NCBI GenBank assembly: GCA_964442255.1
Contig: CAYTYC010000008.1
Coordinates: forward strand, 1-53,972
DNA length: 53,972 nt
Source: an uncultured archaeon
GTDB taxonomy: Archaea; Iainarchaeota; Iainarchaeia; Iainarchaeales; 1-14-0-10-31-34
Direction of reading: 5' to 3'
The stretch's first letter is position 1; each line of letters opens with the position of its first letter. A program made the position numbers. This document shows, piece after piece, positions 6,001 through 12,000 of this stretch.

Positions 6001-9000
6001 GTTAGTAGAGTTTCTTTTGGTGCCGTCATGCTCCTTGATTCTTCTATCCACCAGTCATTCCGTTTATCAAAAAAGGGCTTTAATTCTCTGAATGCATCGT
6101 CGGCTTGGTCTACTTTATCCTTTAACAGTCTAATGTTTTTGAGGTCTTCTTTAGAAACCCCTTCCGGGAATCCCGCCTGTTTCAATGCACGGATGAATCG
6201 GGGTTTTTGCAGGCCGTTTACGGGAAAAAAAAACCGGCATGCTTTAATCCGCCGCAGTTTAGAGTATTCAATCTTCCTGGTGCTTATATGCTCTTCGGGT
6301 CCGGCTGTTTTTCGGTAAAAGGATTTGAGAAGCGAAGAAAAGGCGGTTCTTTCTTTTTCTGTGTTCATTATCGGAAGGCAAGCAAGTTCCAGCGCGTGCA
6401 TCCCAACCAATCTTGAACTAGTCATTGCAGTTTCGTGCTCTTCCCTTGAACGGTGCATTCCCATCGGATTAAACTTAACAACCCAAAGAAATCCGCTGCC
6501 TTCAGGCAGCGGTTTGCGGATTTCTTCCCAAAAAACTTTTTAAGAAAAAGTTTCACCAAAACAAACTTTTTGAAAAAAAAAAGTTTGGCCAAAAAACTGC
6601 CTTCGGCAAGTGGCTTACGCCATGCGGCTTCGCCTTTAACGGAAAAAGACAGCCTCAACGAATTCAGGGAAACCCATTGCTTTAGCCGTGGAAGGATGTC
6701 ATATTTTTCTGCAATGTCTTTTGCAGGCAAAGTAATTCGGTTTTCATTGTCCCCTTTTGTTTTTACCTTTGCGACTCGCTCAGCAAGCGTTCGTTTTGGG
6801 GGGGTCTTGGAACTCTGCGCATACAAGATATTCGTTTCTTGGGCTTTAAAATTGTATTGAACAAGAATCAGTTTATGGGAGGAAAGGGGACCTAACTTTT
6901 TTTGTTTTTTTTACCGTTTTAACCCGGTGAGCCTATCCCCTTTCCTCTCCTTTTATTTTTTGCTTATTTTTTGTGTAGTTTATGTGTTCCCTCCTAATGC
7001 TATTTCAATAAAAGATACGGCTTCCCTTTATTTATTAATTATCCGCTTTATGCTGTCCAAAAAGTAACACTTAAATCTTTTTTGGTGCGCCATTTAAATG
7101 GTTTAAAATGGCTGTGCAGATGCAAATTGATGACGAGGTGAGGCTGAAAATAATTGAGGCTTTGCTCAAAAAACGTTCCATTGTCCCGAACATCCGCCAA
7201 ATCCAGAAATACACATCTTACCATAAATCCACAATCAAAAGTTCCCTGGATTTTCTCACTGAGCAAGGCCTGCTCCATGGTTTTGGCCCGAGGATTAATT
7301 TCAGGACCTTTGGGCTAAAACTTGAGGCAATCGAACTGCTGCAAATGGATTTCAGCGAAAAAGAGCTCTTCACCAAATACGTGAAGGCAGTGGAAAAAGA
7401 CCCCCACACCTACCGCGCGTCCGCGGTAATCGGCTCCGGAAACCTGAATGTCGTTGCCCGCCATTTCTATGAGGACATTGAGTCCTTCCACGAGAACACG
7501 CAGAAAACCTATTACGAAAAAATTCCCGGCCTCTTCAAGCTAATAAGGGACAGGGAAATTTTTTACTCAACCGACCCATTGTACAAGGCGGAGTCACGGA
7601 CAAAAAGCATTATCGAAATAATAAAGAAAAAAAAGGGGTTGGAGTGAAGCTGCAGCTTGATTTGAGGAAGTCGCTTACGGAAAACGCGAACGACTGCTTT
7701 GAAAGGGGCAAAAAGGCCAAAAAAAAGCTGAAAGGGCTGGAAAAAGCGCTGAAGGATTCGGAAAAAAAACTTTCGGAAATGGAAAAGAAAAAGGAAACCG
7801 GATTCAAGGCCGCGGAGCCTGCAAAAAAAAGGAAAAAAAAGTGGTTTGAAAAATTCCGCTGGTTTCACTCCAGTGAAGGCTTTTTGGTTTTGGGCGGAAG
7901 GGACACGCAAAGCAATGAGGAAATAGTGAAAAAGCACATGGGGAAAAGTGATTTGTATTTTCACGCGGAAATTTACGGTGCGCCGCACTGTGTGCTTAAA
8001 ACAGCGGAAAACATTATGGAAAAAAGCCCCCAAAAAAAGCCTTCGCCAAAAAAACCGGGCAAAAAAACCCTGGAAGAGGCGGCGAGATTTGCTGCCTCCT
8101 ATTCCAATGCATGGAGGGAAGGATTAAGTTCAGCGGATGTGTACTCGGTTTCCCCGGGGCAGGTAAGCAAATCCGCTCCATCCGGTGAATCCCTGGGGGC
8201 GGGGGCGTTCATGATTCACGGGAAAAGAAACTGGTTCAAAAAAACCCCCCTTGATTTGGCTGTTGGGGTGAAAGGGGAAAACATCTCGCTGCAAATAATC
8301 TGCGCCCCGATTTCCGCAGCCAAAAAACACTCCAAAATCGTCTTCAGGCTTAAGCAGGGGAAAATGAAGAAAGGCGAAGCCGCAAAGAGCCTTAAGGCGC
8401 GTCTTGAAAAAAAAACAGGGAAAACCGTGGATTTGGATGAATTGCTTTCAATGCTTCCAAACGGCGGCATTGGGATAGAATAAATTTATATTAGTTTTAT
8501 CGGAGAGCCTTATTTGAGGAAAAAAAAAATGCCTGAAAACGAGAAAAAAGAATTGATTCTTAAGGTCCAGGACCCTGATCCAAGCCATGTGGGCAGGAAC
8601 ATTGTCACGCTTGACAGGGTTTCCAAGCAAGCGCTGGGGATTACTTCCGGCGACATAGTGGAAATTGAGGGAAGCAAGAAAACCGCCGCAATAATCTGGC
8701 CCGCCCGCCAGGAGGATGAAGGAAGGGGAATTGTGCGGATGGACAACCTCATAAGGCACAATGCGGGGGTGAGTTTGGGCGAAAAGGTTAAGGTAAGGAG
8801 GGCCGACTACAAGGAGGCAAAAAAGGTTGTCCTCGCGCCCACACAGGAAGTGAGAATAATTGCTTCAGGCTATGACCGCATACTCAAAAAAACGTTCATT
8901 GGAAGGCCGATTACCAAAGGCGACAACGTGTGGATTTCGGTTTTCGGCTCCGGGTTCATTTACTCGGTGGTTGACACAAACCCCCGGGGAACTGTGAAGG

Positions 9001-12000
9001 TCACGGACTTCACGCAATTCGTTTTAAGGGAAGAGCCGGTTAAGGAGGCAGTTGAAGCGATAGGCAGGATAGCCTACGAGGACATCGGCGGATTGGATGA
9101 ACAAGTGCAAAAGGTAAGGGAAATGATTGAGCTCCCGATGCGCCACCCTGAACTATTCCGCAAGCTCGGAATAGACCCCCCAAAAGGGGTTCTCCTTTAT
9201 GGTCCCCCGGGAACTGGAAAAACCCTTTTGGCCAAAGCCGTCGCAAACGAAACCGCGGCGCACTTCATTTCAGTTAACGCCCCCGCAATAATGAGCAAGT
9301 TTGTCGGGGAAGCGGAGGAACGAATTCGGCAAATGTTCAAGGAAGCCGAGGAAAACGCCCCAAGCATTATTTTCATCGACGAACTGGACGCAATCGCCCC
9401 CAAAAGGGAGGAAGTTATTGGGGAGGTTGAAAGAAGGGTTGTGGCGCAGCTGCTTTCATTGATGGACGGTTTGGAGGCAAGGGGAAACGTTATTGTAATC
9501 GCCGCAACAAACCGGTTAAATTCATTGGATGAGGCGTTGAGGCGCCCGGGAAGGTTTGACCGCGAGATAGAGATCGGGGTGCCGGACAAAAGGGGAAGAA
9601 AGGAAATCCTTTACATTCACACGAGGGGAATGCCCCTTGCAAAAGACGTTGACCTGGAAAAGTTTGCTTCAATCACCCATGGCTTTGTGGGCGCGGATTT
9701 GGCTGCGCTTGCAAAGGAATCCGCGATGAAAGCTTTGCGGAGGTATCTCCCAAAAATAAACCTTGAAGAGGACACAATTCCAACAGAGGTGCTGGAATCC
9801 CTGGAAGTAAACAAAAAAGATTTTCAGGAAGGATTAAAGGAAGTGCAGCCCTCTGCTTTAAGGGAAGTGATGGTTGAGGTTCCAACTATTAAGTGGGCGG
9901 ACATCGGCGGACTGGGGGAAGTGAAAGAGGAGTTGGCTCAGGCAATTGAATGGCCGTTAAGGAACCCGCAGGCATTCAGGAAAATGGGCATTACCCCTCC
10001 CCGCGGAGTTTTATTGTTTGGGCCTTCCGGAACAGGCAAAACCCTTTTGGCCAAGGCGGTTGCAACGGAAAGCGAAGCAAACTTCATTACAGTTAAAGGG
10101 CCGGAGCTTATAAGCAAATTCGTCGGGGAAAGCGAGAGGGGAATCAGAAAAGTTTTCAGGCGCGCAAGGCAGGTAAGCCCGGTTATTGTTTTTTTTGACG
10201 AAATTGATTCAATTGCTTCTTCACGCGGCGGAAGCCATGATTCCGGCGTAAGTGAAAGGGTTGTAAACCAGTTGTTAACTGAATTGGACGGAATAGAGGA
10301 AATGAAGGATGTCGTGTTTATCGCAGCCACAAACCGCCCTGATTTAATTGACCCAAGCCTGCTCCGCCCCGGAAGAATGGATAAGCTGATCAGGGTTTCT
10401 TCCCCTGATGAAAAAGCGCGGTTGGCGATTTTCAAGGTGCACACAAAAGGAGTTCCTCTTGAAAAAGGCGTTGATTTGGGGGAGTTGGCGAAAAAAACAG
10501 AAGGATTCAGCGGGGCAGACATTGAAGGCCTTGTAAGAGAGTCTGCGTTGATTGCGTTAAAGGAAAGCAAAATGAGGCCGCAGGCCGTGAGCAAAAAGCA
10601 CTTTGACGAGGCAATCAAAAAAATCTTTCCGTCAATCACAAAGGACACGGAGCAGGCATACGAGGAATTCCGGGAACAGTACTCTTCATTTAAACCGAGT
10701 TACGTGGGATAAATTTATATATGCCTGTGTACACATATATGTGCATGAGCACTAAGACACTTTCCATCAGGACAGAGGTCTATACTAAACTCCTCCACGC
10801 TAAGCATAGGGGGGAGAGTTTCTCAGATGTATTGGACAAACTCGTTTCAAGGAAAAAAAAGCTTAGTGATTCTTTTGGGAAATGGGCTGTTTCTAAGGGG
10901 GAGTGGGGCAAATCAAGAAAGGAACTAGATAAAATGTGGAAGCATTGGGGAAAGGACTTGGAATGAAGTGCTTTGACACTGATTTTTTGGTGTTTCTGTT
11001 GCGGGGGGATGAGGCAGTAAAGAGGCAAGTGAATGAATTAGACCAAGAGCATGCTTTATCCGTTTCGGCTATAACTGCTTTTGAATTACTTTATGGGGCA
11101 AAAAGGTCAGGCAGAGTGCAGGAAAATGTTAAGGAAGTGCTTAACCTGCTTAATGGGTTGGTTCTTCTCCCATTTGACTTGGAAGCTGCTGAAAAGGCAA
11201 GTTCCATTCAGGCAGCCCTTGCTTCAAAGGGGAAAATGGTGCCAATTAGTGATTTGTTTATTGCCGCAATTGCTGTTGCCAACGGCTGCGAACTTGTCAC
11301 GCTAAATAAGAAGCATTTTTCTGGCATCCCCGGGTTGAAGGCGGAGTAGGCGCCCAACTTGTTCTTGGCTGCGGCATAAAAAGCAGCTATTTATGTGCCT
11401 GGCTTGGCTCTGCGGAATTCAGCTGCCTGGGATGGTTAAAAAACTTTTTGTTTTATTGGTTTGTAGGGGGGCAAGCAGGTGGGCTCAAGCGGTAAAGTTA
11501 TGCAACTAAGGGTCGGAATTAATGTAACCGGGCCTGAATATGTGTTGGGGGATTTGAGATTAAGCGCAGACTCCAAAGGGGGCCGCGTGTTTTATTCTCT
11601 CGGCCCTTCCTCAACGAGAATTCCTTCAGTTGTCTTATCAATATTTTCCCGTGTTTGGAATGGTTTGCCTGGAGAAATTAGCAGAACGGAAATAGATGAC
11701 AAGGCTGGGCTCAAAAAAAAGTCCATGCTAAATCGATATTTAAGGCGGCGCCTGCCAGCGCAAGCGGAGACGTGTTTGTGATAAATTTTAGTAAAATTCG
11801 GCTAGGGCACGAGGAATACTGGCAAGCATTCTATAAGTTGGGAGCTAGAGGGGCCCACCAGTTAATGGAGCTAAGAACCAGTAGTGGAAAAATTCATTAC
11901 ACGCCTACTTTGCACAGGCTATTCACTTTCGCGAGATCACGCGTTAGGCAGGATTTAAGGTCGCTTAATGAGCCAATGAGGCTTTCGAAGAAGGCTTTGG

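Follow-up and report, generated by a model that had tools for sequence, protein, structure and literature searches.

We found that aRqcH, the archaeal homolog of Rqc2/NEMF, is encoded by two unlinked genes in an uncultured archaeon of the phylum Iainarchaeota, and that the gene for its C-terminal half (C-half) lies immediately upstream of the gene for the AAA+ unfoldase Cdc48 in the analyzed window (53,972 nt; contig CAYTYC010000008.1, assembly GCA_964442255.1). With moderate confidence, we take aRqcH here to consist of two subunits and the C-half gene to belong to an old syntenic block, its place beside Cdc48 being inherited gene order; a working link of the C-half to Cdc48 is possible. The initial annotation had placed the two genes on different contigs, and we confirmed a complete ORF in each (Table 1). 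In the literature searched, we found no description of either the split or the Cdc48 neighborhood.

Table 1. Split aRqcH genes and their neighborhood in the window (contig C7 lies outside it)
Feature	Coordinates	Strand	Basis
Lrp/AsnC regulator	1760-2239	+	AsnC_trans_reg, HTH_AsnC-type; in 17/20 regions
DNA topoisomerase I (topA)	3679-5862	+	Topoisom_bac, Toprim, Zn ribbon
Lrp/AsnC-like winged-helix protein, 179 aa	7108-7647	+	weak HTH_5, weak Lrp match
C-half of split aRqcH, 279 aa from GTG	7644-8483	+	Pfam, NCBIfam, T. kodakarensis alignment
Spacer, 45 nt	8484-8528	+	sequence read
Cdc48/VAT-type double-ring AAA+ unfoldase, 727 aa from ATG (alternative start, TTG at 8514)	8529-10712	+	Pfam, TIGR01243
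Peptidase M50 (site-2-protease family) membrane protein, downstream of Cdc48	12052-12720	-	Peptidase_M50, 1.3e-13
N-half of split aRqcH, 372 aa from ATG	contig C7 50140-51258	-	Pfam, NCBIfam, T. kodakarensis alignment

The C-half is equivalent to the last 270 residues of one-piece archaeal RqcH and comprises, in order, the last β-strand of the middle domain, helix 2 of the coiled coil, NFACT-R, and a putative C-terminal (NFACT-C-like) domain. NFACT-R_1 (PF05670, DUF814) was complete (1.2e-33; 116.4 bits against a cut-off of 29.8) and its invariant residues were kept; positions 369-420 of the NFACT_N profile were also matched. The protein covered positions 381-644 of the 645 of RqcH_arch (NF041120), its residues 2-275 aligned to residues 381-642 of Thermococcus kodakarensis aRqcH with 48% identity, and it matched human NEMF 463-647 (1.6e-32). 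Its C-terminal region (NFACT-C, DUF3441) had no Pfam match, but aligned to the T. kodakarensis protein up to residue 642 and weakly to NEMF 999-1034. The N-half supplied the remainder: NFACT-N followed by HhH, with the NFACT_N profile matched from 7 to 357 (C7:50239-51231, minus strand), RqcH_arch covered from 3 to 362, and residues 2-355 aligned to T. kodakarensis aRqcH 4-360 at 29% identity. Its motifs ADR and ELFxxGN match columns that are invariant among full-length proteins. The halves together amount to 651 aa (372 + 279), compared with 650 aa in T. kodakarensis, and score 326.7 (N-half) and 198.7 bits (C-half) against RqcH_arch, so that neither alone reaches its cut-off of 400. A profile search of the genome's contigs gave one match for NFACT-R and one further match for NFACT_N; with a single NFACT-R per genome, the C-half arose by fission, not duplication.

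The site of the cut was located on the AlphaFold2 model of full-length T. kodakarensis aRqcH (pLDDT 89.7). Strands at 372-377 and 380-385 place it at the 378-379 turn, and the fission is exact, at a two-residue β-turn of the middle domain. The cut divides both the antiparallel coiled coil and the middle domain: the N-half has helix 1 and the greater part of the middle domain, and the C-half has the final strand of that domain together with helix 2, with helix 390-434 packing on helix 260-321 in the model. An ancestral gene of about 650 codons would thus have been cut at the coiled-coil tip, in the turn between the two strands. The N-half, with NFACT-N, HhH, helix 1, and the bulk of the middle domain, may have stayed at the old locus, since AMMECR1 lies 2.1 kb from it, a proximity listed for the archaeal NFACT neighborhood in PMC4075521; Mut7-C, the other classical archaeal neighbor, was not found in the genome (93.8% complete). 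The C-half gene lies elsewhere. Its product could reassociate with the N-half by pairing of strands and by forming the antiparallel coiled coil, and the two together could act on stalled large subunits, as is thought for the one-piece protein.

The split was widespread. It occurred in 119 of 121 genomes of the window's phylum, in all 61 genomes of a second phylum, and at a further 30 loci with titles naming Woesearchaeota, Nanoarchaeota, or similar, and is present in at least three DPANN lineages. Across 151 genomes of the order, separate frames were found for the C-half in 147 (134-343 aa, leaving aside three short secondary fragments in genomes with a longer match) and for the N-half in 145 (mostly about 300-440 aa, plus a few short fragments), and none carried a fused frame. 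Of the two, the N-half changes faster (20-46% identity, against 38-61% for the C-half). An artefact of assembly, frameshift, or gene calling might be suspected, as the assembly is a 51-contig draft with the halves on separate contigs. However, both ORFs are complete and contig-internal with unrelated flanking genes, and the same separate frames recur in 145-147 of the 151 genomes, closed single-contig genomes included (G002 and G016, in which the halves are 36-254 kb apart); the comparative data refute this reading, which we regard as practically untenable.

In the window, the C-half and Cdc48 are co-directional and 45 nt apart, as the initial annotation had stated. The spacer contains a TATA-like sequence, TTTATATT, at 8485-8492, about 40 nt ahead of the Cdc48 ATG, and a GAGG at 8516-8519, also ahead of this ATG. 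Spacers in 28 relatives ranged from -26 to 159 nt (median: 55), and AT-rich boxes occurred 25-45 nt before the Cdc48 start in many of them. Judged from its sequence, the box is a putative promoter, and Cdc48 probably has its own. The proposed operon with Cdc48 is a candidate: orientation and short spacing are in keeping with it, but a TATA-like box intervenes and the tight coupling of the C-half is to the upstream Lrp-like gene, whose last 4 nt are shared with the beginning of the C-half frame. In two loci of the second phylum, the C-half and Cdc48 apparently overlap by 14-17 nt, which fits co-transcription there.

The pair belongs to a collinear block with the order Lrp/AsnC, topA, Lrp-like, C-half, Cdc48, M50 peptidase. 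Each member was kept in the same order in 17-20 of 20 regions, which were picked for adjacency and long contigs, so these figures are informative only for the other genes. The Lrp-like gene preceded the C-half in 24 of 29 loci and 18 of the 20 regions, and the M50 peptidase was present in 19 of the 20 and also in four regions of the second phylum; four genomes of that phylum share the order topA-Nudix-C-half-Cdc48-x-M50. The old block is retained by the window's phylum as well as by a few second-phylum genomes, with the C-half gene tightly coupled to its Lrp-like neighbor. The 179-aa product of this neighbor was considered as an RQC partner and dropped; it resembles an Lrp/AsnC-type regulator, and its Atlas features scored 0.97/0.93 to clusters named Lrp/AsnC.

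Cdc48 followed the C-half co-directionally in 119 of the 147 genomes of the order, in agreement with the conserved synteny reported previously (123 of 195 genomes). These comprise 98 genomes with CDC48_N within 400 nt and 21 with CDC48_N within 0.6-2.3 kb, where the adjacency survives the insertion of an extra gene. The arrangement occurs in 32 families, among which C-half identity falls as low as 38%, and was also kept in 4 of 5 genomes that belong to the same class but to other orders. Such persistence lends weight to a working ubiquitin-free RQC module, in which aRqcH, bound to the stalled 50S, would mark or present the nascent chain, the neighboring Cdc48 and the 20S proteasome would extract and degrade it, and gene order would be kept for joint production. 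The genes for the 20S alpha and beta subunits are present in the genome; in addition, eukaryotic Rqc2 and Cdc48 share one pathway (PMC6514570), and a Pyrococcus pull-down with a proteasome-binding protein yielded the aRqcH homolog (PMC9540759). Nevertheless, we consider such a module rather unlikely. The adjacency has one single origin, inside a block with topA that is kept equally often: in a control of 59 genomes of the order, topA (counted if co-directional and within 6 kb upstream of the C-half) was found in 44 and Cdc48 downstream in 46, so the Cdc48 adjacency is not kept beyond local background. Elsewhere, it was found in 3 of the 61 genomes of the second phylum, after none of the 30 split loci titled Woesearchaeota, Nanoarchaeota, or similar, and beside none of 10 full-length aRqcH loci; the split and the Cdc48 linkage are therefore separable, since in most of the split-bearing lineages Cdc48 is not near the C-half. 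No fusion of NFACT-R to Cdc48 was seen, as none of the best 120 of 497 longer matches, all 601-682 aa, had the size of Cdc48, and the TATA-like box in the spacer also argues against joint production. A complex prediction for the C-half (55-row alignment) and the Cdc48 N-domain (17-row) scored 0.00 against a mark of 0.32 and gives no answer either way. Two regions of the most divergent family, L096 and L112, are without topA but keep the C-half-Cdc48-M50 core, which, together with the survival of gene insertion, could reflect selection on the C-half/Cdc48 pair. According to the initial annotation, a genomic link of this kind would date the Rqc2-Cdc48 partnership before eukaryotes. None of 38 Asgard genomes having the gene carried Cdc48 within 10 kb, so these data do not allow the partnership to be placed on the lineage that gave rise to eukaryotes, and the present evidence does not show it to be older than them.

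Another candidate role follows from a 2026 preprint (10.1101/2025.09.04.673968), which reports that the yeast solo NFACT-R protein Jlp2 frees peptides from tRNA via His44 and that Rqc2 is without this His. The C-half alone might likewise be a Jlp2/CCDC25-like peptidyl-tRNA release factor and not a subunit, with a separate role for the N-half. Both are stand-alone proteins with NFACT-R and a coiled coil, and the catalytic His of Jlp2 is apparently conserved: His107 (motif FHAE) is invariant in the C-half and lines up with a His of human NEMF, whereas yeast Rqc2 has a Ser there; position +2 from it is acidic and position +8 is again His, the pattern that the preprint gives for Jlp2 (H44, D46, and H52). 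The slower evolution of the C-half points the same way. However, this His is just as invariant in one-piece archaeal aRqcH (H489) and so is not tied to the split, and the first elements of the C-half, a strand of the middle domain and a long amphipathic helix, pack against the N-half in the full-length model. The equivalence of the two His residues is also indirect. Because the C-half did not align directly with CCDC25 (PDB 7EOE), either by phmmer at E <= 0.01 or by profile at E <= 1, it rests on the matching spacing and on what the preprint says of Rqc2. The C-half is an ortholog of the aRqcH C-terminus and not of CCDC25/Jlp2, since the domain order is reversed (in Jlp2/CCDC25, NFACT-R is N-terminal and a short coiled coil follows, whereas in the C-half NFACT-R stands between the coiled coil and a C-terminal domain), the C-half profile did not reach CCDC25 in the PDB at that threshold, and the best full-length relatives are aRqcH. 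We therefore give this role little credence, and hold very improbable the combined scenario in which the freed C-half acts via His107 as a Jlp2-like release factor on the stalled 50S and passes the chain to Cdc48 from the next gene and then to the 20S proteasome. If true, RQC would here run independently of ubiquitin, by a route that Iainarchaeota have retained as a gene pair.

Compared with one-piece aRqcH, the proposed two-subunit protein has all domains, the putative C-terminal one included, in the same order, differing in its two unlinked genes and the cut in the middle-domain hairpin. Bacterial RqcH works with the helper RqcP and ClpXP-based degradation. The Bacillus subtilis protein (PDB 7AS8, 7AQC, 7OPE) shares NFACT-N, HhH, the coiled coil with middle domain, and NFACT-R, and its residues 360-529 were matched by the C-half profile (1.7e-11), but it is a single chain without the C-terminal domain. 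With the eukaryotic RQC (Rqc2/NEMF, Ltn1, Rqc1, and Cdc48-Ufd1-Npl4), the likeness is one of lineage-restricted gene order, in that homologs of Rqc2/NEMF and Cdc48 are neighbors here; Ltn1, Rqc1, Ufd1/Npl4, and ubiquitin are eukaryotic or bacterial additions according to PMC6514570. Archaeal RQC is itself still hypothetical, as PMC9540759 only "suggests the existence" of it. Through a natural, ancient, and phylum-wide fission at the coiled-coil tip, RqcH comes already divided for dissection, with the tRNA-selecting N-part in one gene and, in the other, NFACT-R, the part recently claimed to have release activity in yeast Jlp2; the Cdc48 neighborhood is a hypothesis open to testing in Iainarchaeota.

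Cdc48 itself has CDC48_N, CDC48_2 (the double-psi-barrel N domain), two AAA domains, and AAA_lid_3, and scored 1091.7 bits against TIGR01243 (cut-off: 802.65); there was no other strong CDC48_N match in the genome. The domain set is identical to that of archaeal Cdc48/VAT, which works with the 20S proteasome, and 20S subunits are present here as well. The HbYX motif has its Tyr at -2. In contrast, the conserved Tyr-bearing C-terminal tail of Cdc48, PSYV(G/R/E) in 15 of 20 relatives, has it at -3.

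The locus carries the C-terminal half (C-half) of aRqcH, a known factor that is here encoded by two genes, a form found widely among DPANN archaea. Open reading frames (ORFs) were found where the initial annotation had placed the C-half and Cdc48 genes, and its view that aRqcH is split in two genes was borne out by complete ORFs on this contig (C8) and on contig C7, with a single NFACT-R match in the whole genome (51 contigs, 1.28 Mb, completeness 93.8%). The 279-aa C-half matched NFACT-R_1 with an E-value of 1.2e-33, preceded by NFACT_N profile positions 369–420 (Pfam), and the Cdc48 protein scored 1091.7 bits against TIGR01243 CDC48. 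One further NFACT_N match, C7:50239-51231 (−), covered profile positions 7–357 and belongs to the N-terminal half (N-half), a complete ORF of 372 aa from ATG, internal to its contig and flanked by a PRC-barrel gene on one side and an unrelated secreted-looking protein on the other. Excerpts of Burroughs and Aravind (PMC4075521) describe an NFACT core that resists rearrangement, with Mut7-C and AMMECR1 as archaeal neighbours; because AMMECR1 and the N-half are 2.1 kb apart, the N-half is at the ancestral locus and the C-half elsewhere. The run of translation-related genes that includes the N-half (C7:47515-51258) contains AMMECR1, a radical-SAM wyosine-formation (Taw1-like) gene, and the PRC-barrel gene.

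The split is an exact fission of aRqcH. Residues 2–355 of the N-half corresponded to 4–360 of Thermococcus kodakarensis aRqcH (650 aa; 29% identity), and residues 2–275 of the C-half to 381–642 (48% identity). Likewise, the halves covered positions 3–362 and 381–644 of NCBIfam RqcH_arch (645 positions), and neither alone reached its 400-bit cut-off. The two proteins sum to 651 residues (372 + 279), and therefore no part of the protein is missing. An AlphaFold2 model of full-length Thermococcus aRqcH (31-row alignment, mean pLDDT 89.7) showed, in order, a helix (260–321), the middle-domain helices, three strands (363–367, 372–377, and 380–385), and a helix (390–434). In this model, the cut maps to a two-residue turn that joins the last two middle-domain strands at the coiled-coil tip. 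The halves would reassemble through strand pairing and the long antiparallel coiled coil.

We investigated how widely the split occurs. Across 151 genomes from 32 families of the order Iainarchaeales, the C-half was found in 147, in frames of 134–343 aa except for three short secondary fragments beside longer matches, and the N-half in 145, mostly in frames of about 300–440 aa with a few short fragments; none of the 151 had a fused frame. In closed genomes, the distance between the halves ranged from 36 kb (G002) to 254 kb (G016). At the phylum level, NFACT-R lay in frames of 134–343 aa in 119 of 121 genomes, six from other orders included. In a second phylum, entered via a record titled Micrarchaeota and sharing no genome with the first, frames were 250–421 aa in all 61 genomes (unpublished G195 counted). 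A scan of species-representative genomes returned 46 loci, of which 30 were split, 10 full-length, 4 bacterial, and 2 Micrarchaeota-titled. The split loci were titled Woesearchaeota, Nanoarchaeota, Nanobdellota, Altiarchaeota, and other taxa, although some labels are probably wrong, and the full-length ones (623–699 aa) Aenigmatarchaeota, Pacearchaeota, Nanohalarchaeota, Parvarchaeota, Woesearchaeota (one), and Asgard (four). A Woesearchaeota-type protein covered 99% of the C-half and is therefore cut at the same place. Split loci across these groups thus mark a trait of several DPANN lineages, not a peculiarity of this genome. In a locus titled 'archaeon' (L069), the N-half (1245-2168) precedes the C-half (4001-4768) on the same strand at a distance of about 1.8 kb, which may represent a state near the original fission. 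Within the order, the N-half diverged much faster, with 20–46% identity to the protein of this genome vs 38–61% for the C-half.

The conserved C-half–Cdc48 gene order reported by the initial annotation for Iainarchaeales was confirmed by comparing match coordinates in the 147 genomes with a C-half (this genome included), using the best 150 CDC48_N matches listed (57 weaker ones exist besides). Among the matches listed, CDC48_N was co-directional and less than 400 nt from the C-half match in 98 genomes, 0.6–2.3 kb downstream with an extra intervening gene in 21, within 5 kb but on the opposite strand in 6, distant on the same contig in 1, and absent from the C-half contig in 21, at least 6 of which had a contig end less than 1 kb from the C-half on the Cdc48 side. 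In other orders of the class, the two genes were co-directional and within 1.7 kb in 4/5 genomes. The intervening gene in the window's own family encodes an HD-type phosphohydrolase-like protein (186–187 aa; L007:2309-2872 and L010:2301-2861, from other genera of the family) and is not at the junction in the window.

The Lrp-like gene, whose end runs 4 nt into the C-half gene, was upstream of the C-half in 24/29 loci. Among 28 distinct relatives in which the C-half and Cdc48 are immediate neighbours, the spacer before Cdc48 ranged from −26 to 159 nt (median: 55), and many had AT-rich boxes 25–45 nt ahead of the Cdc48 start, where the window has a TATA-like box. From these sequences, we infer that Cdc48 is usually under its own, predicted promoter. 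The C-half and Cdc48 seem to overlap by 14–17 nt in the two Micrarchaeota-titled loci.

Features of the window around the C-half and Cdc48 genes; homologue counts refer to 20 related regions
Feature	Position	Strand	Description
Lrp/AsnC regulator	1760-2239		homologue in 17/20 regions
Topoisomerase I (topA)	3679-5862		homologue in 17/20 regions
Lrp-like gene	7108-7647		179 aa; homologue in 18/20 regions
aRqcH C-half	7644-8483	+	279 aa, GTG start; complete NFACT-R_1 (Pfam)
TATA-like box TTTATATT	8485-8492		about 40 nt ahead of the Cdc48 ATG
GAGG	8516-8519		in the spacer before Cdc48
Cdc48	8529-10712	+	CDC48_N, CDC48_2, two AAA modules (Pfam); alternative TTG start at 8514
VapB antitoxin/PIN (VapC) pair	10721-11349	+	directly after Cdc48; counterpart in 0/20 regions
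M50 peptidase	12052-12720	-	site-2-protease family membrane peptidase; homologue in 19/20 regions

The pair lies inside a larger conserved block. We surveyed about 17 kb around the C-half in 20 genomes from 18 families; these were picked for long contigs and adjacency, so only the non-Cdc48 genes are informative. Order and orientation of the Lrp/AsnC, topA, Lrp-like, and M50 genes were kept across regions, and genes beyond the block were found in 0–8 of the 20. The VapBC pair, having no counterpart there, is therefore a recent insertion. Four second-phylum regions with adjacency had the same order (topA, Nudix gene, C-half, Cdc48, small gene, M50), so the arrangement has a single origin. The control set comprised the 59 C-half-bearing genomes from a 60-genome draw of the order not chosen on adjacency. 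Here, topA was co-directional and less than 6 kb upstream of the C-half in 44 (45 if a 22-nt match-end overlap in G021 is counted), and CDC48_N was less than 3 kb downstream in 46; thus, a gene without a plausible RQC role is retained beside the C-half equally often. The M50 peptidase was the most faithful Cdc48 neighbour and also occurs in the second phylum, there co-directional; a Cdc48–M50 link may deserve its own look.

Outside the phylum, adjacency was found in 3/61 second-phylum genomes (G162, G172, and G212), and the two genes were about 619 kb apart in the closed genome G165. None of the 30 split loci elsewhere (26 of them followed by 3.7 kb of sequence or more) and none of the 10 full-length loci had it. 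Among 38 Asgard genomes carrying aRqcH, all in frames of 558–748 aa, none had CDC48_N within 10 kb of the gene; the closest case was on the other strand, at a distance of 13.6 kb. The adjacency is real and old; it is restricted to one phylum and a few genomes, has a single origin, sits among unrelated genes, is retained no better than the topA link, and is missing from the sampled Asgard genomes. The ancestral Rqc2–Cdc48 partnership proposed by the initial annotation, as a ubiquitin-free forerunner of eukaryotic RQC, is thus not shown, and the gene pair is a lead for experiment. Literature searches, with supplements outside their scope, found no published description of the aRqcH split or the Cdc48 neighbourhood. 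In the excerpts of PMC4075521, Cdc48 appears in the reference list only; those of PMC6514570 trace Rqc2 back to LUCA and count Cdc48 among the archaeo-eukaryotic additions, drawing no genomic link between them.

The C-half retains the invariant NFACT-R residues. Its His107 (motif FHAE) aligned with His in human NEMF and Ser in yeast Rqc2. According to a 2026 preprint (10.1101/2025.09.04.673968), the yeast solo NFACT-R protein Jlp2 is a His44-dependent peptidyl-tRNA release factor, and Rqc2 lacks this His. Spacing at His107 (acidic at +2, His at +8) matched Jlp2 H44, D46, and H52, although no direct CCDC25 alignment was obtained. This His does not set the split form apart, because its equivalent in one-piece archaeal aRqcH, H489, is invariant. 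A Lys/Pro-rich insertion of about 14–22 residues lies inside NFACT-R (residues ~119–139) and was present at full length in none of the 27 other rows inspected of a 55-row alignment. The genome encodes 20S proteasome subunits. The Cdc48 C-terminal tail, PSYV(G/R/E) (window 10677-10712), was conserved in 15/20 relatives, with Tyr at −3; it resembles the HbYX proteasome-docking motif without matching it exactly. In some relatives, Cdc48 and topoisomerase I contain inteins (Intein_splicing and LAGLIDADG_3), as checked by Pfam for L102:8842-12783 (G110) and L100:2923-6618 (G001), and, among the matches listed, about 25 relatives had CDC48_N in open frames of 1070–1730 aa.
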